This document shows, one piece after another, positions 7,899-63,202 of a DNA stretch of 64,000 nucleotides. Each line of letters opens with the position of its first letter. Position 1 is the stretch's first letter. The notes under the pieces are model-generated. The model searched no databases and was not told the origin of the DNA. It worked only from the letters and a program-made list of their open reading frames with translations. The stretch is from a phage: the sequence record NC_135729.1. One strand, 5' to 3'. A program made the position numbers and the translations under genes.

Positions 7899-8519
7899 TT
7901 AAAAACTGCGTTTGCGTCTTGGGTGGCGAGGAGGTTGGTTATTTAGACCACTGATAGGTGTAATCCCCTGGACATCGAACGGTCCGTTGCTGTTTTCATT
8001 AAATTTAACCCGAATTCCTTCATCTACACGAACACCACCAATGATAATCATTCTGCTGTAAGCATCTAGCTCAGAATCTACATAGTCTGGGTGTGCCAGC
8101 AGCCAATCAAGGAAATCTTTCCATTGGGCGTAGGAAGATCCACCACGAATCTCTATGGTCTCATCACCTATTTTTTCCAGACGGGAAGTTATACTTGCAT
8201 TACCGCTGGACACTTCCTGCATCATTAGCCACCGCACAAGCTGCACAAGCACATTGTACTTAAGCAGAGGTAGCTTATCAGGGTCTGCCGGATAATTTAG
8301 TTTCAACTTCTCCATGTCAAGGAATGTTTTAATTACCTCATCAGGGAGAGTTTCCTCATCAACATTGCCGAGCAACAACCTCATAATATTAATAAGAGGT
8401 TGGTCTGGATCAGGTTCCGGAAGTACAGGATCTTCTTTTGGTGGTTCTTCTGGGGTATCGACTACACCATCATGGTTAGGCGGTGACGGGATAATCTCTT
8501 CATCTTCATACCATGCCAT
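7899..8519 (-). CDS. hypothetical structural protein
   Basis: Track ORF 7899..8576; start moved to internal Met (MAWYEDEE) because the 5' end overlaps a terminator hairpin; GAGGT SD upstream. Confidence 0.4.
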   Translation of the reverse strand: MAWYEDEEIIPSPPNHDGVVDTPEEPPKEDPVLPEPDPDQPLINIMRLLLGNVDEETLPDEVIKTFLDMEKLKLNYPADPDKLPLLKYNVLVQLVRWLMMQEVSSGNASITSRLEKIGDETIEIRGGSSYAQWKDFLDWLLAHPDYVDSELDAYSRMIIIGGVRVDEGIRVKFNENSNGPFDVQGITPISGLNNQPPRHPRRKRSF

Positions 8520-8578: not shown

Positions 8579-9424
8579 TTATGCCAGTGCAGCCTCAAAA
8601 TCTTTCATCATATTTTGGAAAGTTTTTGCCTTACTTAAGGTAACACCGTGCTCTTTGGCGAAGGTTTGGAGTGCATCTTTTGAACCACTTTTGTCATCTT
8701 CGTTGTTAAGAGCTGCGGCCTGCTGCAGTATGGCATCAATATCACTGCGAGAAGATCTTGATTCTTGTGCCTGTTCAGGATCCTGCTCAGTGCCTCCCGG
8801 TGCAGCCGGATCTGGGGATTCTTCACCGTCACCACCAGGTTCAGTAGGACCTACAGGCGGCTCCGGTTCTGGTTCAGGCGGTGGAGCTATCGTAGAAACC
8901 AGTCCAAGATTTACAACCTGAGAACGTTTCTTAGGCCACTCAATGGTGAAAGTTTGGGTATCTTCTTCATAAACAATGTTGCATTGCTCATCGTTTATGG
9001 TCACTTTTTTAGGCATCCCTACAGGGTCCCATAGATGCCCCTCTGCCACGGAAACTTGGAAAGCAGCATCTACCTCTTTAAACACTGACGGGGTGAGGGT
9101 GATATTGACATCCCCGCTTTGCAGTGTTAAAGTGCTTTCATCAAGGTTCTCTGTGAAGAACAGAAGAATAACACCCATACGGATAGTTGAAATACCAGTA
9201 TCAATTGGCAGGCCTGTATGTTTTGCAATCTTCTCAAAGAAGTCTACAATCGTTCTACATGGATAGTGAACACTGCCAATAACGAATTCTGTTGGTGGCA
9301 GCAGGGCTGATAAACCAACATTGATTTCTGGGTTATATTGTGCTAAAAATTGATAAAAACTTAACTGATTGTTGAAAACTCTTAATAGCGGATCATACTC
9401 AACTGGATATACGGCTCTCTTCAC
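8579..9424 (-). CDS. hypothetical virion protein with Pro/Glu-rich linker
   Basis: 281 aa; N-terminal domain, PPPEPEPEPP linker, short C-terminal domain; directly downstream of capsid gene. Confidence 0.4.
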   Translation of the reverse strand: MKRAVYPVEYDPLLRVFNNQLSFYQFLAQYNPEINVGLSALLPPTEFVIGSVHYPCRTIVDFFEKIAKHTGLPIDTGISTIRMGVILLFFTENLDESTLTLQSGDVNITLTPSVFKEVDAAFQVSVAEGHLWDPVGMPKKVTINDEQCNIVYEEDTQTFTIEWPKKRSQVVNLGLVSTIAPPPEPEPEPPVGPTEPGGDGEESPDPAAPGGTEQDPEQAQESRSSRSDIDAILQQAAALNNEDDKSGSKDALQTFAKEHGVTLSKAKTFQNMMKDFEAALA

Positions 9425-9504: not shown

Positions 9505-10512
9505 TTATTCACCTTTCAGAGTTGCTTTAACAACCAGCTCTGGACGGGTGTTAACTGCCAGCATGGAAGTTTCAGATTCAATCTTCTCTTCACGCAGGTA
9601 TGCAGAGTGTTTATACCACATATACAGTTCCTGTGCTGGGGTATTTGCTTCGTTAACATCATCTGCCGGAGCAAAGTGCAGCTGGAACATCTGATCAATA
9701 CCCATCGGCAGAATGCGAGCTTCTTTCTTAGGAATATTGCCAGAGATATCTTCGATAAAGGTGATACCTTTATGTTCGAACACACGATAAACGCTGTCCT
9801 GACCGCCAGCACCCAGACGACGACGCAGAGGTTCCTGAGCAGAGCCGTAGTAGGTGTATGCCAGTTCTACCAGCGGGTGGTGAGTGATTGCACTGAAGAA
9901 CTCAGGAGAGCACAGAGCCACGATACGGTAGCCAGCAGCGTTGTCACCAGCTTGCAGGGCGATATGCAGACGAGCGTCTTCCAGAACTTCCATCGGGTCC
10001 TGATCTGCTTTCGCTGGATCAATTTCTACAGATTTCTGGGACACACCCCACAGAGTGTAGTAATCATACTGACAGGTGGTGTCACCTGGTGCATAGGATT
10101 TACCCAGAATAGCCTGGAACAGCGCTTTCTCACGCAGTGCTTCATGAGAAACACGGATACGGCGAACAACGCGGGTTACTACGTCCTGAACAGTTTTCGG
10201 AGCATCAGGGGTGAAGTAACGACGGAAGTTCTGAACATCTGCTGCGGTGATGCCTTTGTCCAGAGGGAAGAACGGGATGTTCAGGTTTTTAACCTGAGCA
10301 CGTTCACTACCAACGTAATTACGCTCACCACCACGACGGCGTGCCGGAATGTCGGTTACAACTTCATCAACACGCTCGATCTGAGCAATCGTTGAGGTGC
10401 CGAGACGGGTTTCGAACAGATCCATACCAGTAATCAGTCGGAATTGGCGCGGAACAAGGTCCAGAGTAGCACCTAAATCAACAATGCCAAATTCATCTTT
10501 ACGAGTAATCAT
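9505..10512 (-). CDS. major capsid protein
   Basis: 335 aa; follows scaffold and decoration-like genes and is followed by a strong terminator; size as lambda-E-type capsid proteins. Confidence 0.6.
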   Translation of the reverse strand: MITRKDEFGIVDLGATLDLVPRQFRLITGMDLFETRLGTSTIAQIERVDEVVTDIPARRRGGERNYVGSERAQVKNLNIPFFPLDKGITAADVQNFRRYFTPDAPKTVQDVVTRVVRRIRVSHEALREKALFQAILGKSYAPGDTTCQYDYYTLWGVSQKSVEIDPAKADQDPMEVLEDARLHIALQAGDNAAGYRIVALCSPEFFSAITHHPLVELAYTYYGSAQEPLRRRLGAGGQDSVYRVFEHKGITFIEDISGNIPKKEARILPMGIDQMFQLHFAPADDVNEANTPAQELYMWYKHSAYLREEKIESETSMLAVNTRPELVVKATLKGE

Positions 10513-16744: not shown

Positions 16745-16821
16745 TGGTCTCCACGGAGTGATTCGAACACTCGACCTCCTGATCCCAAATCAGGCGCTCT
16801 ACCAAGCTGAGCTACGCGGAG
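16745..16821 (-). tRNA. tRNA-Pro (anticodon TGG)
   Basis: Hand-folded cloverleaf: C1-G72 acceptor, D-arm GCTC/GAGC, anticodon loop TTTGGGA, T-loop TTCGAAT, encoded CCA. Confidence 0.8.
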
Positions 16822-16832
16822 TATCTACTATT

Positions 16833-16907
16833 TGGTGGCCCTGGGTGGAATTGAACCACCGTCTGGCGATTATGAGTCGCTTGCTTGAACCTTCCAGCTA
16901 CAGGGCC
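16833..16907 (-). tRNA. tRNA-Met (anticodon CAT; initiator, elongator or Ile2 not resolved)
   Basis: Hand-folded cloverleaf, anticodon loop CTCATAA, T-arm GGTGG/CCACC, encoded CCA. Confidence 0.7.
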
Positions 16908-16908
16908 A

Positions 16909-16983
16909 TGGTGCTGATGGCAGGACTTGAACCCGCAACCTATTGATTACAAATCAATTGCACTACCAATTGTGCTACATCAG
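16909..16983 (-). tRNA. tRNA-Thr (anticodon TGT)
   Basis: Hand-folded cloverleaf, D-arm GCAC/GTGC, anticodon loop TTTGTAA, T-loop TTCAAGT, encoded CCA. Confidence 0.8.
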
Positions 16984-16988
16984 CAAAA

Positions 16989-17087
16989 AGGTGCTAGGCG
17001 GTGGAATCGAACCACCTATGTATTCAACGACTACCTCGTCTATTTTCAGGATTAAAAATCCTCGCCCTTGCCAAAGGGCTTACCTAG
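16989..17087 (-). tRNA. aberrant tRNA-like element (about 97 nt; anticodon unresolved)
   Basis: Canonical acceptor stem, D-arm (GCCC/GGGC) and T-arm (GGTGG-TTCGATT-CCACC), but about 30 nt extra between anticodon-like hairpin and T-arm. Confidence 0.35.
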
Positions 17088-17185
17088 CTCAATATGTTGA
17101 CCATGTTGCTAGTCGGCGATGACGACTGTAACATTTGATAATCCGGTTCTGCTTCCGGCTTTCGCTTAATTGCAAGGTCAACAAT

Positions 17186-17276
17186 GTGGCGGAGAGTAAT
17201 GGAATCGAACCATCATCGAGTCATCCTCAACGGGACGGTTTTCAAGACCGCTTGAGCACCATTGCTCCCTACCCTC
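17186..17276 (-). tRNA. tRNA-Ser (anticodon TGA), type II
   Basis: Acceptor GGAGGGT, anticodon loop CTTGAAA, long variable arm, T-loop TTCGATT, encoded CCA. Confidence 0.7.
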
Positions 17277-17392
17277 CTTTATAAATTATACTGATAATGA
17301 CACTGATTTTCGAGCAGTTAGTGACTAGTATAAACGACGATAAATATCAATGCCATTATCTGTATTATTTATGCATCTAAAAAATATAAATT

Positions 17393-17479
17393 TGGTGGGG
17401 AGTGGTGGAGTCGAACCACCCGAGTCGCAATGACAATAGATTTACAGTCTACACCGCTACCTCTACGGGATAACTCCCC
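17393..17479 (-). tRNA. tRNA-Tyr (anticodon GTA), type II
   Basis: Anticodon loop CTGTAAA; variable arm TGTCATTGCGACTCG closely resembles E. coli tRNA-Tyr; T-arm GGTGG/CCACC; CCA encoded. Confidence 0.75.
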
Positions 17480-17483
17480 AATT

Positions 17484-17558
17484 TGGCACCCCGTACTGGA
17501 CTCGAACCAGTGTCAACGGCTTAGAAGGCCGCTGCTTTATCCACTAAGCTAACAGGGC
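17484..17558 (-). tRNA. tRNA-Arg (anticodon TCT)
   Basis: D-arm GCTT/AAGC, anticodon loop CTTCTAA, T-loop TTCGAGT, encoded CCA. Confidence 0.8.
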
Positions 17559-17654: not shown

Positions 17655-17993
17655 TTAGCTATTGCTAACAGGCTGTATTTCTGTAGTAAATGGCATAAAA
17701 GGTGCTGGTTTTTCAGCCTCTTCCACTACCACCTCTTCCTCTTCACCAAACATCTCATCATATTCTTCCTGCATTCGGTCTGCCTTATCAAGAACATACT
17801 CTGCAATGCTTTGACGAATATTTTGTTTGGTTTTCGGGTCCAACATCAGCTCTCTTAAAACTTTGTGAGCTTCTGGAACCATCGCTATAAAAGATTCCTT
17901 CATATCAAGGATGTTCTTCTCTAGCTGAATGGCGTTGGACTCCTCTTTCAGAGGTCTGCCTCTACGGCGACGCTTTTTAGTTGTATCCGCCAT
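17655..17993 (-). CDS. small basic protein, possible DNA-binding
   Basis: Start at Met (MADTTKKRRRRGRP) with GGAGGAAAC SD; basic N-terminus, acidic C-terminus. Confidence 0.45.
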   Translation of the reverse strand: MADTTKKRRRRGRPLKEESNAIQLEKNILDMKESFIAMVPEAHKVLRELMLDPKTKQNIRQSIAEYVLDKADRMQEEYDEMFGEEEEVVVEEAEKPAPFMPFTTEIQPVSNS

Positions 17994-18021
17994 GTTTCCT
18001 CCATTATCACGTGATAGGTGG

Positions 18022-18050
18022 ATTTTATCACAGCAAATACTGATTGTCAA
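18022..18050 (-). promoter_or_regulatory. sigma70-like promoter with overlapping palindromic operator-like site
   Basis: TTGACA, 17-nt spacer, TAAAAT on minus strand; palindrome TTATCACGTGATA (about 18004-18016) at the predicted transcription start. Confidence 0.5.
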
Positions 18051-18327
18051 GTTCGCCGCAGGGTGGTGTTCCCTGCGACTTGTCCAGCGTCCTGGACCAG
18101 CAAGTTTTCCAGCTATACCCATTACCGCGCTCAGGCTCGACCTTATTACAGGTTGGCTGGGGTCACATCGTCATGTGCTGGCTGCCCCTACCATTTTAAG
18201 TGTGGTGCACTATCAAGCCCTCTAAGGGGAACTCAGTCTTCTCCGAACCCTGTTTCAAAGCATCCGGAGATAAAGCCATCAAATTCATCTTTAAATTGGA
18301 TATTCATCATGATACACGAAAACAACC

Positions 18328-18570
18328 TCATTGTAAAGCGCAAATAAATAAAACATACTTAATTTGTTTGTTATCAGGCTCAGGGTAGAAGTAGAAGATC
18401 TTGCTATCACCGATCTGAACACCACCATCCCAACAGCATAGCCCATAACCTGTATTCATACAAGCTAGGTCGTTGGCAAAATCTATTGCATCATCCAGTG
18501 CACGAAATTCACCTTCATCTTCTAAATAATCCTCATTCATGGAACGAAAAACGAGCTTAACCTTAAACAT
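18328..18570 (-). CDS. hypothetical protein
   Basis: 80-aa ORF, no motif. Confidence 0.35.
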   Translation of the reverse strand: MFKVKLVFRSMNEDYLEDEGEFRALDDAIDFANDLACMNTGYGLCCWDGGVQIGDSKIFYFYPEPDNKQIKYVLFICALQ

Positions 18571-18646
18571 AGCATTACCTGTAGACCTCGTAAGTTAAAA
18601 TTGCATCACATCATATTGCAGATCTTATCAGGTAACACTATTTTTG

Positions 18647-18856
18647 TCAACAGATTCCGGCCTTATCCTTCCTGTCTGCGTATTCTTTAATCGCAACCTC
18701 ATCTGCATTAGTGACCAGGTATTCAAAGTAACTCTCAAGCTCCTCGTCAATGTCAGGAGACCAGCTCTTTTTCCTGTCAGTGTGAATTGCAGACTTGTTG
18801 AACTTATTACAGTTCTTTGCTACCGGGTTGTTCATTAAGCGCTCCTCAGCGTTCAT
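18647..18856 (-). CDS. hypothetical protein
   Basis: 69-aa ORF, start overlaps upstream gene end. Confidence 0.35.
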   Translation of the reverse strand: MNAEERLMNNPVAKNCNKFNKSAIHTDRKKSWSPDIDEELESYFEYLVTNADEVAIKEYADRKDKAGIC

Positions 18857-19424
18857 AGTAAATTTTATTTAACATTACCTCATCCTTTGCAGAAAGGATA
18901 TCTAGATATGCATCACCGAATCTACCTGCAACAACCTCTGCATGATACATCACTTCGTTAATATCGTCAAGAGTGATAACTGGATGACCGTATCTCTCTG
19001 AGTATTGTCTCAGAGTGCGATGTAGGGAGTCATCATCATAGGCAGACTTTTTAATATCGCAAACACGACGAATAGCCTTGATGTCGAAAAACCCTGTACG
19101 ATACCAACCAAGAAAAAGGTTTCGTGCAGTGTCAACATCTACATCAATACCATTAAGAACCTTATCTACAAGATAGCTGTCATCCTTTGGACCAGCTTCC
19201 TTAGTGCGAATGTAGTTGCCATCTTTTCCAGGTGACATCTCCTTCTCATCACCAACCTGCATGCCATCATTTGGCGGTGTTAGCCACTTATCCGGATGCT
19301 TACGATCACGAGCGTTAGAATGATTACGCTGGAAACCAGGCTTCCACTTGAAAGTTTTCTCCATCTGTTCTTCATTCTGATAACGTTTTGCAATCTTTTC
19401 ACGGTCATCTTTGCGTGAACCCAT
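18846..19424 (-). CDS. hypothetical protein
   Basis: 192-aa ORF with GAGGAGG SD upstream of ATG. Confidence 0.45.
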   Translation of the reverse strand: MGSRKDDREKIAKRYQNEEQMEKTFKWKPGFQRNHSNARDRKHPDKWLTPPNDGMQVGDEKEMSPGKDGNYIRTKEAGPKDDSYLVDKVLNGIDVDVDTARNLFLGWYRTGFFDIKAIRRVCDIKKSAYDDDSLHRTLRQYSERYGHPVITLDDINEVMYHAEVVAGRFGDAYLDILSAKDEVMLNKIYYER

Positions 19425-19927
19425 AGCTGCCTCCTCTTCAAGTTATAGAAAAACTCACTGTATCACTTTGTAACGAGCTTTTCTATCAAACTGGTGCGAT
19501 TGCATTACCTGGTATAGTTCATATAGCTGTGGAGCGATTTAGGGGCCTTCTTGTCAGTTTCCACACATAAACTTCATCCAAGCTCGCGCGGGAGACTCTC
19601 AACCGACTCCTTACGGCGCTGGCAAGCTTTCGTCGGTGGTCCACATCAGTGCTCGGCCTTTGGCCTGCGCTATCGCTTCGCTCCCACACATGTTAACAGA
19701 CCTGCATGTATGCACTTCTGTTATTGTGTGCACCAAGGAGGCCCGGCATCTCGCCCCTCGTAGGCGAGTGCCAATGAAGGGCCGACACTACCTATAGTAA
19801 GTAATAATTTTAAAACATGGTACTTAGGATCTAGTATATTCTACATAAGTTAAGTATATGTACTTAGTACCATAAGTACTAGATCTTTTATTTTTTATTA
19901 TTTAGTTATTTTAGTTATATTCTTTAT

Positions 19928-20010
19928 GTGTCCGTATCACGGACAGTTAGTGTCCGTATTACGGGCAGATGTGTCCGCGTGACGGACAGTAGTGTCCGTA
20001 TCACGGGCAG
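19928..20010. repeat. array of four tandem 22-bp palindromic repeats (iteron/operator-like)
   Basis: GTGTCCGTATCACGGACAG and three close variants in direct tandem, each with internal dyad TGTCCGT/ACGGACA; adjacent to 120-bp AT-rich tract. Confidence 0.7.
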
Positions 20011-20084
20011 TTACTGACCTCTGTTCCAGAGCGAACATAAAACATACGAATCCTTATAGTACAGATATTTAAGTTTTTACTGGT

Positions 20085-20435
20085 CTAACCAGTTGTTGAC
20101 ATTCGAATAACCTCTTCTGGTGGCAAAACTTTGGAAAATGTACATCTTTTACCTCTCCCTTGTGTGGATATTTCAACCACTCCTGCACATTCTAAAGTTT
20201 TAACGCACGCTGCTGCTTTTGTTTTCTTTATCCCAACATCTGCTGCAATTTTCCTTGTGCTTGGTGTGAAGCGTGAATTTCCTCCAAGCTTATACCAGTT
20301 GTGCAGGTAGCAGTATACGATCTTGTCATATAAGTCAAGAACAACAGCCTCCCCAGTTGTGTCATTCAAAACTTTTGACATAGACAGTATTTCAAGGGGG
20401 ACTTTAAGATATAGCAGCTTATCCCCATCTTTCAT
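20085..20435 (-). CDS. hypothetical protein (possible DNA-binding protein next to repeat array)
   Basis: 116-aa ORF whose stop is about 75 bp from the palindromic repeat array. Confidence 0.4.
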   Translation of the reverse strand: MKDGDKLLYLKVPLEILSMSKVLNDTTGEAVVLDLYDKIVYCYLHNWYKLGGNSRFTPSTRKIAADVGIKKTKAAACVKTLECAGVVEISTQGRGKRCTFSKVLPPEEVIRMSTTG

Positions 20436-62245: not shown

Positions 62246-62389
62246 GGTGTTTTTACCTCTTAGTTAATTTTCTTACAACTTCCCTTCAAAAAAGAATATA
62301 GCAAAACTGCCGATCCCTGTCAACAAGGGATAGCATAATTTTTATGTGATCAAGGGGCTTTATTGCCCCTGACCATGTAACTTGTTGTA

Positions 62390-62653
62390 TTATTTGTTGC
62401 TCATCCAGTTTTCCCAAGCTGCCTGATAATCTGCCTCACTACGGCGGATCTCTTCTTGTTCTTCAAGCCGGATCTCTTCTTCCAGGTACCCCAAGATGTC
62501 AGCCTTTTTAGTCTGGCGTAACATCCAATCGTCTTTTTTGCGAGTAAAGATCTTGTACGCTTTCTCGCAAACTTCTTTTTTGCTACCTTTTTGGACTTCA
62601 AGAATTCTGTAAGCCATGTACTGAACTAGTTTGAGCTGGTCAAGACGTTTCAT
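62390..62653 (-). CDS. hypothetical protein
   Basis: Start at internal Met MKRLDQL with AGAGGA SD. Confidence 0.4.
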   Translation of the reverse strand: MKRLDQLKLVQYMAYRILEVQKGSKKEVCEKAYKIFTRKKDDWMLRQTKKADILGYLEEEIRLEEQEEIRRSEADYQAAWENWMSNK

Positions 62654-62714
62654 GATGTTTTCCTCTTTATGTGGTCCTGGTTTAGTGGGCCTTTTGGCCC
62701 GTGTCATTATCTTA

Positions 62715-62987
62715 TTACTTACGGCGGCAGAATTCAAGCGTTTTTAATTGATAATCTTCCTCAGCCTGGAGTACAACCGCCTCGATCATTTCGTTGGCAT
62801 TGTTGAAGCCATACCCTTTAGCGAACTCGTCCGCACCACCTTCGTGATCATGTTCTGCGTTCATCGCTTCCACAAAATGGAATTCAAGATTATTGAGGTA
62901 AGGGCTTGATGTTCCGTCCTCTTTTTCGATGAGATCCCATATAGCATTAAAACGTGATTCGACCTCTTGATTAATCCAGCTTGACAT
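62715..62987 (-). CDS. hypothetical acidic protein
   Basis: Start at internal Met MSSWINQ with GAGGAA SD. Confidence 0.4.
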   Translation of the reverse strand: MSSWINQEVESRFNAIWDLIEKEDGTSSPYLNNLEFHFVEAMNAEHDHEGGADEFAKGYGFNNANEMIEAVVLQAEEDYQLKTLEFCRRK

Positions 62988-63202
62988 GATGTTTTCCTCT
63001 CTTCTGGTTGTTGTGTGGGGCAAACGTCTTGCCCCTTCAAGATAAATGTTACCCCACCCCATGGCAGATGTCAACGGTTTTTATAGTTCTTATATGACAG
63101 GCAGGCCCGGTGATTGTCTCCCCCCGTCGCCAGGTGCCTGCCGTGGAATAAGTATAACAAAAAACAGGACCATTGCAAGCCCTGTTTTGTAGTTTATAAA
63201 TA

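Follow-up and report, generated by a model that had tools for sequence, protein, structure and literature searches.

What lies between two minus-strand genes at positions 18051-18327 of this phage genome: regulatory DNA belonging to the promoter beside it, or a gene of its own whose product is not a protein? The DNA analyzed (the window; the whole stretch of 64,000 nucleotides from NC_135729.1) derives from an rV5-like (Vequintavirus) coliphage and shares 97-98% identity with Vequintavirus genomes. A preliminary description had portrayed the gap as a GC-rich, hairpin-forming island lacking a minus-strand reading frame, situated upstream of a repressor-controlled promoter and possibly containing a structured RNA. 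All of the features that it listed were found where it had placed them; of its overall interpretation, the structured RNA and the sigma-70 promoter stood, and the repressor-controlled operator was not supported. By comparative analysis, the island is shown to be the gene for a predicted structured non-coding RNA, of a family undescribed in the resources searched.

Composition of the island and parts of the predicted RNA

The GC content of the island amounts to 56.0% at 18051-18234 and 49.8% over 18051-18327 as a whole, compared with a background of 42.9% for the window, in agreement with its description as GC-rich. Among 184-nt windows the standard deviation of GC was 4.0, and only 0.25% of them attained the level of the island; this excess, like the promoter match presented below, is beyond chance. 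The proposed lack of a minus-strand gene was likewise borne out, the gap holding just 30- and 36-amino acid reading frames together with a frame that prolongs the downstream gene on its 5' side. The hairpin-forming segments are reflected in the fold of the minus strand, which is more stable than those of shuffled sequences (z = -2.2), whereas that of the plus strand is not distinguished in this way (z = -0.3).

The conserved body of the RNA, like all of the parts named here, is on the minus strand, and it spans 18051-18234; it measures 184 nt in the window and 188-197 nt in most relatives. Its 5' 119 nt (18116-18234) are scored at 155 bits by covariance model R1, which was built from six rV5-type sequences only. 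The body is preceded by a leader hairpin (CUCCGGAUGC...GGGUUCGGAG; 18241-18269) confined to the window/rV5 type and missing in the sister lineage (L031 type), where a promoter directly precedes the RNA body. Within the body, invariant block 1 (18199-18231), which is specific to the rV5-type lineages, comprises hairpins H1 (CCCU-UAG-AGGG; 18218-18228) and H2 (AGUG-CACCA-CACU; 18199-18211); in alignment A1 the window type of this block is identical to most L031-type sequences, two others of that type differing at the first two bases. A 5' domain follows (18159-18188), in which stem P1, formed by GGGG (18185-18188) and CCCC (18159-18162), encloses hairpin P2 (CACAU-GACG-AUGUG; 18164-18177).

The 38-nt core (18119-18156) is predicted to form a three-way junction, closed by the 3-bp helix A (CCA/UGG). 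It contains hairpin B (ACCU-GUAAUA-AGGU; 18140-18153), followed by the junction strand CGA, and the short, GC-clamped hairpin C (GC-CUGAGC-GC; 18127-18136), followed by the junction strand GGUAA, such that the junction strands are 0, 3, and 5 nt in length. The variable 3' domain (18057-18097) consists of two hairpins, GUCCAG-GACG-CUGGAC (18082-18097) and CGCAGGG-AACACCA-CCCUGCG (18057-18077), without a U-tract. This domain is only 46% identical between the window and the L031 type, and a hairpin that is present in rV5, Murica, and L106 (ACCCA-CUUG-UGGGU) is absent from that of the window. No minus-strand terminator was found between 18337 and 17500.

Base pairing and distribution among phages

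The closing pair of the core (N:N') is A:U in 20 of the 32 variants, U:G in six, U:A in three, and C:G in three, and is unpaired in none; its covariation score of 0.124 compares with 0.038 for shuffles, none of 500 of which reached the observed value. Locus L135 carries the element in two tandem copies, and in the first of these helix A appears, when read by eye, to be flipped, the two pairs beside N:N' having changed from C:G to G:C (GG:CC). P1 and P2 have been rebuilt through compensatory changes among the window, L031, T4, L027, and L117 types, and equivalents of their stems were seen in the T4, RB69, and PsgM04F types. In the L031 type, compensatory changes replace P1 by GGAAC/GUUCC and P2 by CUACG-GACG-CGUAG; the RB69 type has 94% of its cells paired compared with 17-46% in slid controls, with exchange among GC, CG, and AU in P1; and L018 exhibits a paired double deletion. 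In the alignment of largest pair count, which was fitted to the model and hence is biased towards structure, 95% of cells are paired (75% when shuffled), with P1 97% and P2 95% paired and double changes at each of their pairs. Overall, double changes occur in 19 of the 26 pairs of this fitted alignment, giving a covariation score of 0.28 compared with at most 0.08 in the shuffled and slid controls. The sequences are kin, and the independent changes are thus far fewer than the number of sequences; the compensatory substitutions found are in excess of those in both shuffled and slid controls.

The U:G pairs, taken together with the asymmetry of the fold between the two strands, indicate the minus strand as the one transcribed. 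Hairpins B and C have stems without any variation among the variants, and their pairing is therefore a prediction; ACC pairing with the GGU in GGUAA is an equally good alternative. Of the 23 further family loci to which model R1 was applied, each gave one match, with a second, partial match in L135, and there was no further match in either the whole rV5-type genome or the T4 tRNA region. Between the window and the L031 type, the 5' two-thirds of the RNA is 78% identical and the DNA of the flanking genes 66-69%. Where differences between these two types were noted, they fall mainly within P1 and P2, and for the most part they compensate each other.

Approximately 1000 phage records contain the core at 90-98% identity, those of T4, RB69, and phages of Klebsiella, Erwinia, and Pseudomonas among them (679 records were retrieved with the window as query and 997 with a T4-type query), and a broad set of rV5-like relatives also carries it. 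With the T4-like phages, it occurs once per genome between differently built stems, its flanks cannot be aligned with those of the window, and the element is intergenic in T4, CrRp10, RB69, and JD18. The earlier suggestion of a possible structured RNA upstream of the promoter is thereby strongly supported, and extended to a conserved family common to T4-like phages. The presence of a nearly unchanged 38-nt core in groups with unalignable flanks implies a strong shared constraint, most likely arising from a specific interaction partner within infected cells. The window and the T4-like phage CrRp10 also share the variable loop of hairpin C (CTGAGC) within a stretch that is 97.8% identical over 45 nt, and the closest relatives of each differ from them in this loop, which suggests a recent exchange between the two phage groups.

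Outside of phages, no match to the element was obtained among 5,426 Escherichia coli genomes, and the sole match in a search of plasmids was to a mis-filed rV5-like phage genome and not a true plasmid. A 16-mer query gave 66 matches in 185,579 bacterial genomes, which is below chance expectation; these show no similarity in their flanks and were rejected as homologs, being chance hits in coding DNA. Likewise, a series of loci from pattern scans (L109, L131, L132, L134, L137, L138, L140-L142, L146, L148, and L150-L154) were judged to be chance matches because flanking similarity was absent.

A scan of the whole window against Rfam 15 at gathering thresholds recognized tRNAs only, leaving the island without a matching family; a permissive scan of 17900-20200 (E up to 10) returned nothing inside 18051-18330, and no match was obtained at the element in the T4-type, PsgM04F-type, or other loci, even with E values as lax as 5-10. 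ARAGORN identified no tRNA in the island, nor was a weak tRNA match seen at E up to 10, and when rnaC and rnaD were compared by blastn-short with the window and the family loci, no match fell at the element. Positions 2-4 of the hairpin-B loop read UAA, UAG, or UGA in every variant. A tmRNA-like or stop-codon reading of this loop was rejected, no reading frame, start codon, or tag frame leading into it in 24 representatives. A mimic of the tRNA-Tyr anticodon loop (CUGUAA) was also set aside and is a weak lead only, as on inspection the flanks offer no 5-bp stem that would enclose a 7-nt loop. Antisense action on stable RNAs was tried with E. coli 16S, 23S, and 5S rRNA, three host tRNAs, the seven tRNAs of the window, and the eight T4 tRNAs as targets; the duplex energies of the core were no better than those of shuffled cores (z of -1.5 or weaker), and same-sense matches, such as one of 9 nt with the 530 loop of 16S rRNA, were at chance level. 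An Hfq-type sRNA ending in a terminator was similarly rejected, given the lack of both a minus-strand terminator and significant complementarity to rRNA or tRNA.

Searches of the literature, some of them with the core sequence itself as query, yielded no account of the RNA; matches for denV concern RegB sites, and that for vs.8 covers the protein only. The element is unannotated in every record inspected, including that of T4 despite the intensive study of this phage; there, a vs.8 reading frame annotated as too long conceals it. The covariance model and coordinates can serve for the annotation of approximately 1000 genomes and for the correction of gene starts, such as that of T4 vs.8.

Promoters, palindrome and genomic surroundings

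A sigma-70-like promoter, TTTACA-17-TATCAT (18309-18337, minus strand), matches the consensus at 10 of 12 positions and overlaps the end of an 80-amino acid reading frame; rV5, Murica, and L024 carry it unchanged. With a predicted start near 18302, the island would constitute the first part of its transcript. The element of L031 has a promoter of its own, TTGACA-17-TATACT (11/12), only a few nucleotides upstream of the conserved body; with the T4-like phages, there is no dedicated promoter at the element.

The promoter recognized in the preliminary description, TTGACA-17-TAAAAT, is that of the 112-amino acid downstream gene and lies at 18022-18050 on the minus strand (TTGACA at 18050-18045, a spacer of 17 nt, and TAAAAT at 18027-18022). 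It was confirmed to match 11 of 12 consensus positions, with a TG extended -10, and the rV5 record carries the same site as "Sigma70-type promoter P74"; its start site is predicted, and its counterpart in L031 is TTGACA-17-TAAACT. Between the -10 and the GGAGG/ATG of the gene (ATG at 17993) is a perfect 12-bp palindrome, TATCACGTGATA (18005-18016), beginning 5 nt downstream of the -10 and covering the predicted +1 region, where a dyad would be expected of an operator. The palindrome had been described as a 13-mer, one flanking T of which falls outside of the symmetry. The related half-site that had been noted nearby, TTATCACAG, does exist (18026-18034), but it is the extended -10 itself (cTGTGATAAAAT on the minus strand) and not a separate site.

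Recurrence of the palindrome was sought in a complete rV5-type genome (the window combined with 1-50 kb and 100-137 kb of JES2013), which contained the one perfect copy and no other at one mismatch or fewer. Sites at two mismatches or fewer numbered two, where 2.7 were expected. P74 is the only one of 54 TTGACA-type promoters to possess it. The L031 type retains only the left half (TATCA), L029 and L031 reading TTATCATATACTC and TTATCATATGTTC at this position. The heptamer TATCACG is found in two of four iteron-like repeats beside the gene of a 116-amino acid helix-turn-helix "replication initiation protein" (20085-20435), and its nine occurrences are not significantly above the 4.9 expected. 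The gene product of 17655-17993, proposed earlier as a candidate binding protein, has no recognizable DNA-binding domain. P74 is probably a separate strong early promoter and the palindrome a one-off feature of it, which may serve as a single autoregulatory site. That the palindrome provides a 5' hairpin following an early promoter was also considered and rejected; eight of the 54 promoters have such a hairpin, and P74 is not among them.

The downstream gene (17655-17993, minus strand) is the homolog of rV5 ORF74 (PHROG 3330), and beyond it ARAGORN located an array of seven tRNA genes (16745-17558) on the same strand as the RNA, with no terminator between the two. In rV5-type relatives, the element is on the tRNA strand and within approximately 0.5 kb of tRNA genes or inside of their arrays: it lies inside the tRNA array of PsgM04F, and in or beside arrays, on the tRNA strand, at L128, L113, L133, L136, L139, L144, and L149. 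Because the window has the terminase and the next gene in common with L136 and L144, this association may reflect inherited synteny within one broad rV5-like lineage. At L128, the element ends the tRNA unit and is followed some 300 nt on by an 11-bp stem and then UUUUUCUUU, with no gene between.

With the T4-like phages, the element lies between the denV/internal-protein genes and vs.8 without tRNA association, approximately 6 kb from the tRNA cluster in T4 itself. It is located there at module boundaries of a variable region, with an upstream gene that varies, and in most of those examined it directly precedes the weak ribosome-binding site of vs.8; JD18-type loci have another gene downstream. 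The genes downstream of the element are unrelated between lineages (vs.8, ORF74, tRNAs, or none), and ORF74 has no similarity to T4-type vs.8. The only neighboring protein families found in common were the terminase and next gene for the rV5 type and the vs genes for the T4-like phages. The orientation of the element always matches that of transcription, and it is positioned upstream of or inside longer transcription units.

Proposed function, alternatives and precedents

We favor, with a probability of roughly 0.55, a stable, structured RNA that acts in trans by binding a conserved host or phage partner. The RNA would be transcribed early by the host RNA polymerase from TTTACA-17-TATCAT (18337-18309), the transcript would continue through the ORF74-tRNA unit, and excision along with the tRNAs would release the RNA as a stable species; the transcript, its ends, and its stability we infer from the sequence. 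Acting in trans, its invariant junction and loops would provide a sequence-specific binding platform, decoy, or hijacking handle for a macromolecule that does not differ from one infected cell to another, be it a host factor or a protein common to both phage groups. Only the neighboring genes suggest that the RNA is connected with the metabolism of tRNA or translation, or with anti-defense. The L128 element without a downstream gene, the variety of downstream genes elsewhere, and the promoter belonging to the L031 element itself argue for action in trans over cis. T4 and the rV5-type phages are easy to manipulate, which makes direct testing feasible.

The lack of a terminator and, in the T4-like phages, of a dedicated promoter fits a cis-acting leader equally well. 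Such a leader would, in the manner of HK022 put RNA, render RNA polymerase resistant to Rho-dependent or intrinsic termination over long early or tRNA units with little translation, or direct the processing or stabilization of the RNA downstream, and the constancy of its orientation and its position ahead of or within longer units are as expected of one, as is the L031-type element beginning right at a strong promoter. RNA polymerase, Rho, or an RNase would serve as its partner, each conserved among hosts, which would explain the invariant core, and tRNA arrays are untranslated and so exposed to Rho. However, P74 lies just downstream of the element in the window and in L031, such that most downstream transcripts would not include it, the L128 element is followed by only about 300 nt and a terminator-like hairpin, and 38 invariant bases are more than stabilizing hairpins need; we regard a cis-acting leader as unlikely, if worth retaining. 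A trans-acting role could also take the form of an RNA-based device for counter-defense or host takeover, which two unrelated groups of virulent coliphages would have in common and appear to have exchanged. The invariant junction would then trap a host factor, such as a tRNA-targeting or RNA-sensing immune nuclease or an enzyme of tRNA processing or modification, or alternatively sequester an immune signaling molecule, thereby protecting the tRNA-dependent translation of the phage. This proposal, which we consider doubtful, draws on the restriction to phages, the tRNA-array context, the one tandem duplication, and the T4 site among internal-protein and vs genes, several of which are anti-defense genes (IPI*; Vs.4/Acb2). 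An orphan riboswitch (a ligand-sensing aptamer) or a small self-cleaving ribozyme, in which the invariant junction would supply the binding or catalytic pocket and the 3' domain the expression platform, would be consistent with a layout typical of such RNAs: the compact junction, its invariant unpaired bases, the covarying or length-variable stems, and the variable downstream domain. The siting at the vs.8 ribosome-binding site in most T4-like phages examined, possible alternative pairings among ACCU, AGGU, and GGU (by eye), and the tandem copies of L135, which recall some riboswitches, point in the same direction. Yet no riboswitch or ribozyme model of Rfam matched even at permissive thresholds, the conserved bases form one contiguous block instead of distant strands brought together, and the downstream genes, which for a riboswitch should be related, are vs.8, ORF74 behind its own promoter, tRNAs, or a terminator, with the promoter intervening before the next gene in the rV5 types; an aptamer or ribozyme is accordingly improbable.

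The remaining explanations dispense with a functional RNA. The model of the preliminary description, in which the palindrome is the operator of a repressor-controlled P74 and the island its upstream regulatory DNA or spacer, has in its favor the near-consensus promoter, the perfect dyad over its start region, and the TATCACG of the iteron-like repeats. It is rendered quite improbable by the uniqueness of the palindrome, the loss of its right half in the sister lineage, the identity of the half-site with the extended -10, and the absence of a DNA-binding domain in ORF74, and it offers no explanation for the conservation of the core in T4-like phages, where P74 is absent. An element acting as DNA, whether a recombination patch of about 40 bp, a homing-endonuclease target, or a protein-binding site, passed between phages during co-infection, would account for the hairpin-C loop common to the window and CrRp10, as a trace of recent exchange, and for the module-boundary position in the T4-like phages. 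The covariation, though, includes U:G pairs, which are A/C mismatches on the opposite strand, and the strand-specific flanking stems have been rebuilt by compensatory changes in an element always co-oriented with transcription, making a role in DNA alone very improbable. A protein-coding origin, as an N-terminal extension of the downstream gene or as a small reading frame, is scarcely credible. The frame is indeed open from ATG 18122, in phase with ATG 17993, into 17655-17993, and the T4 record similarly extends vs.8 over the element. This extension is not conserved, as an indel in rV5 and Murica shifts the frame and brings a stop, and CrRp10 has a TAG; moreover, P74 and the GGAGG site lie within it, no codon position of the core varies, compared with an identity of approximately 67% for the flanking proteins, and 24 representatives share neither a start codon nor a reading frame across the element.

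Among known systems, the operators of lambda also present a dyad over the start region of a promoter, as at P74. Their consensus is TATCACCGC, which the TATCAC half-site resembles; P74 differs in having one site without repeated operators or a cognate repressor found, in a phage that is virulent. The put RNA of HK022, which forms two or three stem-loops in the early phage transcripts and has the conserved RNA polymerase as partner, is confined to action in cis, immediately downstream of PL and PR; the present element can precede another promoter, or a terminator without a gene. Purine riboswitches and the hammerhead ribozyme likewise combine a compact junction and invariant unpaired nucleotides with covarying peripheral stems, but the element has no Rfam match and no consistent regulated gene, and its junction lengths (0, 3, and 5 nt) and sequences are unlike those of either core.

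A similar setting is that of T4 rnaC and rnaD (species 1 and 2 RNAs), which are also small structured phage RNAs and, by annotation, lie on the tRNA strand and are co-transcribed with the tRNAs; in PsgM04F, an rnaD-like segment and the element occupy one tRNA array. There is, however, no sequence similarity between them, the T4 element is outside of the tRNA cluster, and a tRNA-like T-arm with acceptor forms the end of rnaC, whereas the element has no tRNA-like part. GOLLD and ROOL are reportedly structured RNAs of phages and prophages that often adjoin tRNA genes. They are several hundred nt long, form multimeric cages, and belong to other bacterial groups, in contrast to an element of approximately 100-190 nt with a 38-nt core that Rfam scans did not match to them. 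The element could bear on the old puzzle of stable non-tRNA RNAs beside phage tRNA genes, of which rnaC/rnaD, GOLLD, and ROOL are examples.

PhiTE is a large virulent myovirus related to rV5. Its pseudo-ToxI is described as a non-coding RNA that mimics a type III antitoxin and serves the phage as a decoy against host defense (PMC3475682). A mimic of this kind was rejected for the element, which is single-copy (in tandem at L135 only), non-repetitive, and without a homolog found in bacterial genomes, E. coli, or plasmids; ToxI-type RNAs are arrays of repeats of approximately 36 nt copied from a bacterial locus. The copy number of pseudo-ToxI can expand, and the tandem duplication at L135 is similar in this respect.

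An RNA element within the GC-rich island

Over 1.1 kb, the region around the island (18051-18327) shows 97-98% identity with genomes of Vequintavirus, among them JES2013, Murica and rV5. On the minus strand, an 80-aa ORF (18328-18570) precedes the island in gene order, and it is followed by a 112-aa ORF homologous to rV5 ORF74 (17655-17993), seven tRNA genes (16745-17558), the spanins and the large terminase. The preliminary description of the island as GC-rich and non-coding was confirmed: 18051-18234 has 56% GC and the window as a whole 42.9%, a GC content this high is reached by just 0.25% of 184-nt windows, and the minus strand holds short ORFs only, the in-frame extension from ATG 18122 being broken in rV5 and Murica. 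Folding is better than in shuffled sequence for the minus strand (z = -2.2) but not for the plus strand (z = -0.3). A promoter-like site (TTTACA-17-TATCAT, 18337-18309, minus) precedes the island; no terminator was found after the RNA on the gene strand. The conserved RNA body of an uncultured sister lineage (L029/L031/L036) has TTGACA-17-TATACT (11/12) a few nucleotides ahead of it and, right behind it, the equivalent of P74, the promoter downstream of the island. Other GC-high stretches (54-59% in 184-nt windows) occur at 1461-1680, 8701-8940 and 9781-10000. A 21-nt block, AAAGATGAATTTGATGGCTTT (peptide KDEFDGF), is common to the window and L031 types; at L031 ~8398-8427, immediately ahead of the promoter of the RNA, it makes up a mini-ORF of eight codons (MKDEFDGF) that follows a strong AAGGAGAGG site, and in the window (18272-18292) it sits in the RNA leader without a ribosome-binding site.

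Five architectural types of the element were distinguished (window/rV5; the sister lineage; T4 proper; RB69/JD18; PsgM04F/L128/L139), all having in common a core, 38 nt in the window (18119-18156), of the form 5'-CC N, ACCU-GUAAUA-AGGU, CGA, GC-(3-6 nt)-GC, GGUAA, N' GG-3'. RNAalifold applied to the T4-like sequences, together with inspection, yielded a miniature three-way junction of a closing helix A (CCN/N'GG) and hairpins B and C. Among 32 distinct core variants, the N:N' pair is A:U in 20, U:G in 6, U:A in 3 and C:G in 3, and it is never unpaired; the stems of hairpins B and C are invariant, and variation in the hairpin-B loop is confined to R-U-R-R-N-A. In a T4-like contig of 172 kb (L135), the element is present twice in tandem (8967-9177) and the copies have diverged; in the first of them, by our own reading, the other two helix A pairs are flipped from C:G to G:C (GG:CC) and the hairpin-B loop is GUGAAA.

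Directly 5' of the core, a stem is present in every type, built from different sequence each time. The outer stem P1 and its inner hairpin are GGGG/CCCC and CACAU-GACG-AUGUG in the window type, GGAAC/GUUCC and CUACG-GACG-CGUAG in the L031 type, and GGGAA/UUCCC and CCUCAU/AUGAGG in the T4 type, within which L027 has P1 GGGAG/CUCCC and L117 the inner hairpin CCUUAU/AUAAGG. P1 is AAAGG/CCUUU in the RB69 type, AAAGCUA/UAGCUUU in JD18 and AAAGA/UCUUU in L034; L018 has a paired double deletion in the next helix. Comparison of the window with L031 gave 66-69% DNA identity (~67% in protein) for the flanking genes and 78% for the 5' two-thirds of the RNA, with an identical core and a nearly identical block at 18199-18231; most of the differences recorded, which are largely compensatory, fall in P1 and its enclosed hairpin P2. 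Identity is only 46% in the 3' domain, where whole hairpins are lost or gained.

The earlier suggestion of a possible structured RNA upstream of the promoter was strongly supported by compensatory 5' stems and by covariation above shuffled and slid controls. In an alignment of the RB69 type, 94% of cells are paired versus 17-46% with slid partners, and the covariation score is 0.077 versus 0.030 for shuffles (0/500); the core alignment scores 0.124 versus 0.038 (0/500). A covariance model of 119 nt, trained on six window-type sequences only, gave exactly one match in each of 23 other family loci searched, together with the second L135 copy, and nothing further in the window, the rest of an rV5-type genome or the T4 tRNA region. 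In the model-fitted alignment, 95% of cells are paired versus 75% when shuffled, with double changes in 19/26 pairs, a count biased toward the model by construction and made on related sequences; its score is 0.28, with shuffled and slid controls reaching at most 0.08. At the level of sequence comparison, the element was shown to be conserved, structured, non-coding and read from the gene strand.

Distribution among phages

With the island alone as query, BLAST returned 679 phage records. All 118 full-length matches are to Vequintavirus; the remainder, mostly T4-like, have the match in unannotated DNA and over 45 nt only (window 18116-18160; 84-98% identity). In T4-like phages, the block lies on the gene strand of a ~150-nt intergenic spacer just upstream of vs.8. 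The preceding gene differs: it is denV in T4 and encodes an internal protein in CrRp10, and RB69 and JD18 have other ORFs there. The T4-type spacer as query returned 997 records, including phages of Klebsiella, Yersinia, Salmonella and Erwinia and one of Pseudomonas. In Pseudomonas phage PsgM04F, the block lies mid-way in an 11-tRNA array on the tRNA strand. A further ~55 loci, judged to contain the element, came from pattern scans of viral and metagenome contigs. The extension of vs.8 across the element in the T4 record is an annotation artefact, because the same extension is stopped in CrRp10 and absent elsewhere. The annotated T4 start (MT984581.1, 64242-64892) is ~110 nt too far upstream and covers the RNA; the start in CrRp10 and RB69 is MRTFLTG, a TAG closing the T4-type extension in CrRp10.

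Window 18119-18160 and the T4-like Citrobacter phage CrRp10 (L003, 2501-2545) are 97.8% identical over 45 nt and have the same hairpin-C loop, CUGAGC, a loop that otherwise varies and that sets each apart from its own close relatives; this hints that rV5-like and T4-like phages recently exchanged the core. Outside the T4 group, the element lies within ~0.5 kb of same-strand tRNA genes in the window, L031/L143, PsgM04F/L113, L128, L133, L136, L139/L149 and L144; this association may be partly inherited gene order, since the terminase and a neighbouring gene are common to the window and some of these contigs. In L128, the element begins 20 nt after four tRNAs, and ~300 nt past it, with no gene between, an 11-bp stem followed by UUUUUCUUU was found by reading, having been overlooked by the terminator scan owing to its long loop.

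The element was unmatched in 5,426 complete E. coli genomes, and the sole plasmid match (CP057073.1, 137.6 kb, E. coli) is the genome of an rV5-like phage deposited under that label. This record is probably mislabelled or a contaminant, as are 18 'Campylobacter phage' records (MG0656xx) with 93-99% identity to E. coli rV5-like phages over the island region. A 16-mer scan of bacteria (one genome per species) gave 66 matches, below chance expectation and none with flanking similarity. No Rfam 15 family fits the window element or its T4-type, PsgM04F-type and other relatives, even at E = 5-10, and no description was found in the literature, literal sequence strings included. In five viral contigs of 20-52 kb (L131, L132, L134, L137 and L138; e.g., L131 1364-1392, minus), CCUGUAAUAAGG followed by 10 nt and GCGGUAA recurs within a short sequence that has a strong intrinsic terminator at its end; this is probably an unrelated small RNA matching the scan pattern by chance.

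Promoter P74 and its palindrome

The promoter reported downstream of the island, TTGACA-17-TAAAAT (18050-18022), was confirmed; it matches 11/12 consensus positions with an extended -10, corresponds to P74 in the rV5 record and, as predicted from these features, stands as a strong early promoter. The perfect 12-mer palindrome TATCACGTGATA said to overlap its start is present at 18005-18016, but its recurrence failed: no copy with one mismatch or less exists elsewhere in the complete genome (the window plus JES2013 1-50 kb and 100-137 kb), and it is found at 1/54 TTGACA-type promoters. The heptamer TATCACG, also present in two of the four iteron-like repeats at 19928-20010, is not enriched (9 copies versus 4.9 expected), and the supposed half-site TTATCACAG is the extended -10 itself. 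A stable 5' hairpin of the kind following some early promoters of this phage was ruled out for the palindrome, P74 not being among them. Several early TTGACA promoters in JES2013 (~105-115 kb) and at window 62300-63100 have GC-rich hairpins of a common type at ~+10 (e.g., GGCGGGAAAACUUCCCGCC, GGGGCAAGACGUUUGCCCC); 8/54 promoters have folding energy below the 5% background level, versus ~3 expected.

A second GC-rich, ORF-poor island (19519-19800; 54.6% GC), confined to Vequintavirus (118 records), folds better than its shuffles on both strands (z ~-2.5). Beside it lie a very AT-rich stretch (19800-19930) and four iteron-like repeats (GTGTCCGTATCACGGACAG and variants; 19928-20010), and all three lie just downstream of a gene for an HTH 'replication initiation protein' (20085-20435); 19519-20010 looks like a replication origin region.

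Proposed role and alternatives

We infer that the RNA would be transcribed early by the host polymerase, freed in the manner of tRNAs from a longer precursor, and act in trans; a partner present in every one of these infections would recognize its invariant junction and loops in a sequence-specific way. Action in trans is favoured because the downstream genes are unrelated, a promoter or terminator can directly follow the element, one lineage provides its own promoter and one phage has duplicated it; set against these observations, a cis-acting leader serving antitermination or processing, as its place ahead of genes on their strand would allow, is unlikely. A ligand-sensing or self-cleaving RNA, to which a compact invariant junction might also be suited, is a distinctly less probable reading. 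The repressor-controlled operator of the preliminary description fares poorly: P74 is real, but the palindrome is unique, its right half is missing in the sister lineage, and the ORF74 homologue (17655-17993), offered as a candidate DNA-binding protein, has no DNA-binding signature.

Without selection on RNA pairing, the several independent replacements of stems would be difficult to account for, and the U:G pairs and strand asymmetry of folding place this selection on the transcribed strand. A patch for DNA-level recombination, with which the apparent exchange between phage groups would agree, is accordingly very improbable, and a coding sequence, for all that vs.8 was annotated across the element, is scarcely credible. 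Concerning the partner of the proposed trans-acting RNA, core complementarity to E. coli rRNAs, three host tRNAs and phage tRNAs was not beyond chance, and no neighbouring protein family common across the lineages was found. The neighbourhood is suggestive only: one group has tRNA arrays there, and T4 has internal-protein and vs genes, of which several are anti-defence genes.

The closest analogues are T4 rnaC and rnaD, and GOLLD and ROOL are looser ones; the element is a member of none of them. All four are stable, structured, phage-associated RNAs often found near tRNA genes, and we know of no function for any. The element is filed as a new family among such stable structured phage RNAs of unexplained role; its interest lies in its presence in T4 itself, its extreme conservation, its apparent exchange between two phage groups and its immediate testability. 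In the tRNA array of the window, an odd 99-nt tRNA-like gene (16990-17088) with a 4-base anticodon (atcc) was detected by ARAGORN and is annotated in Murica as tRNA-OTHER (Asp|Gly); a similar odd tRNA (ctgg) immediately precedes the element in L128. The tRNA array that contains the element in PsgM04F also has a 29-nt segment (L007, ~2829-2857) with 90% identity to the 5' part of T4 rnaD (E = 5e-4), which suggests that several stable-RNA modules may travel with phage tRNA arrays.
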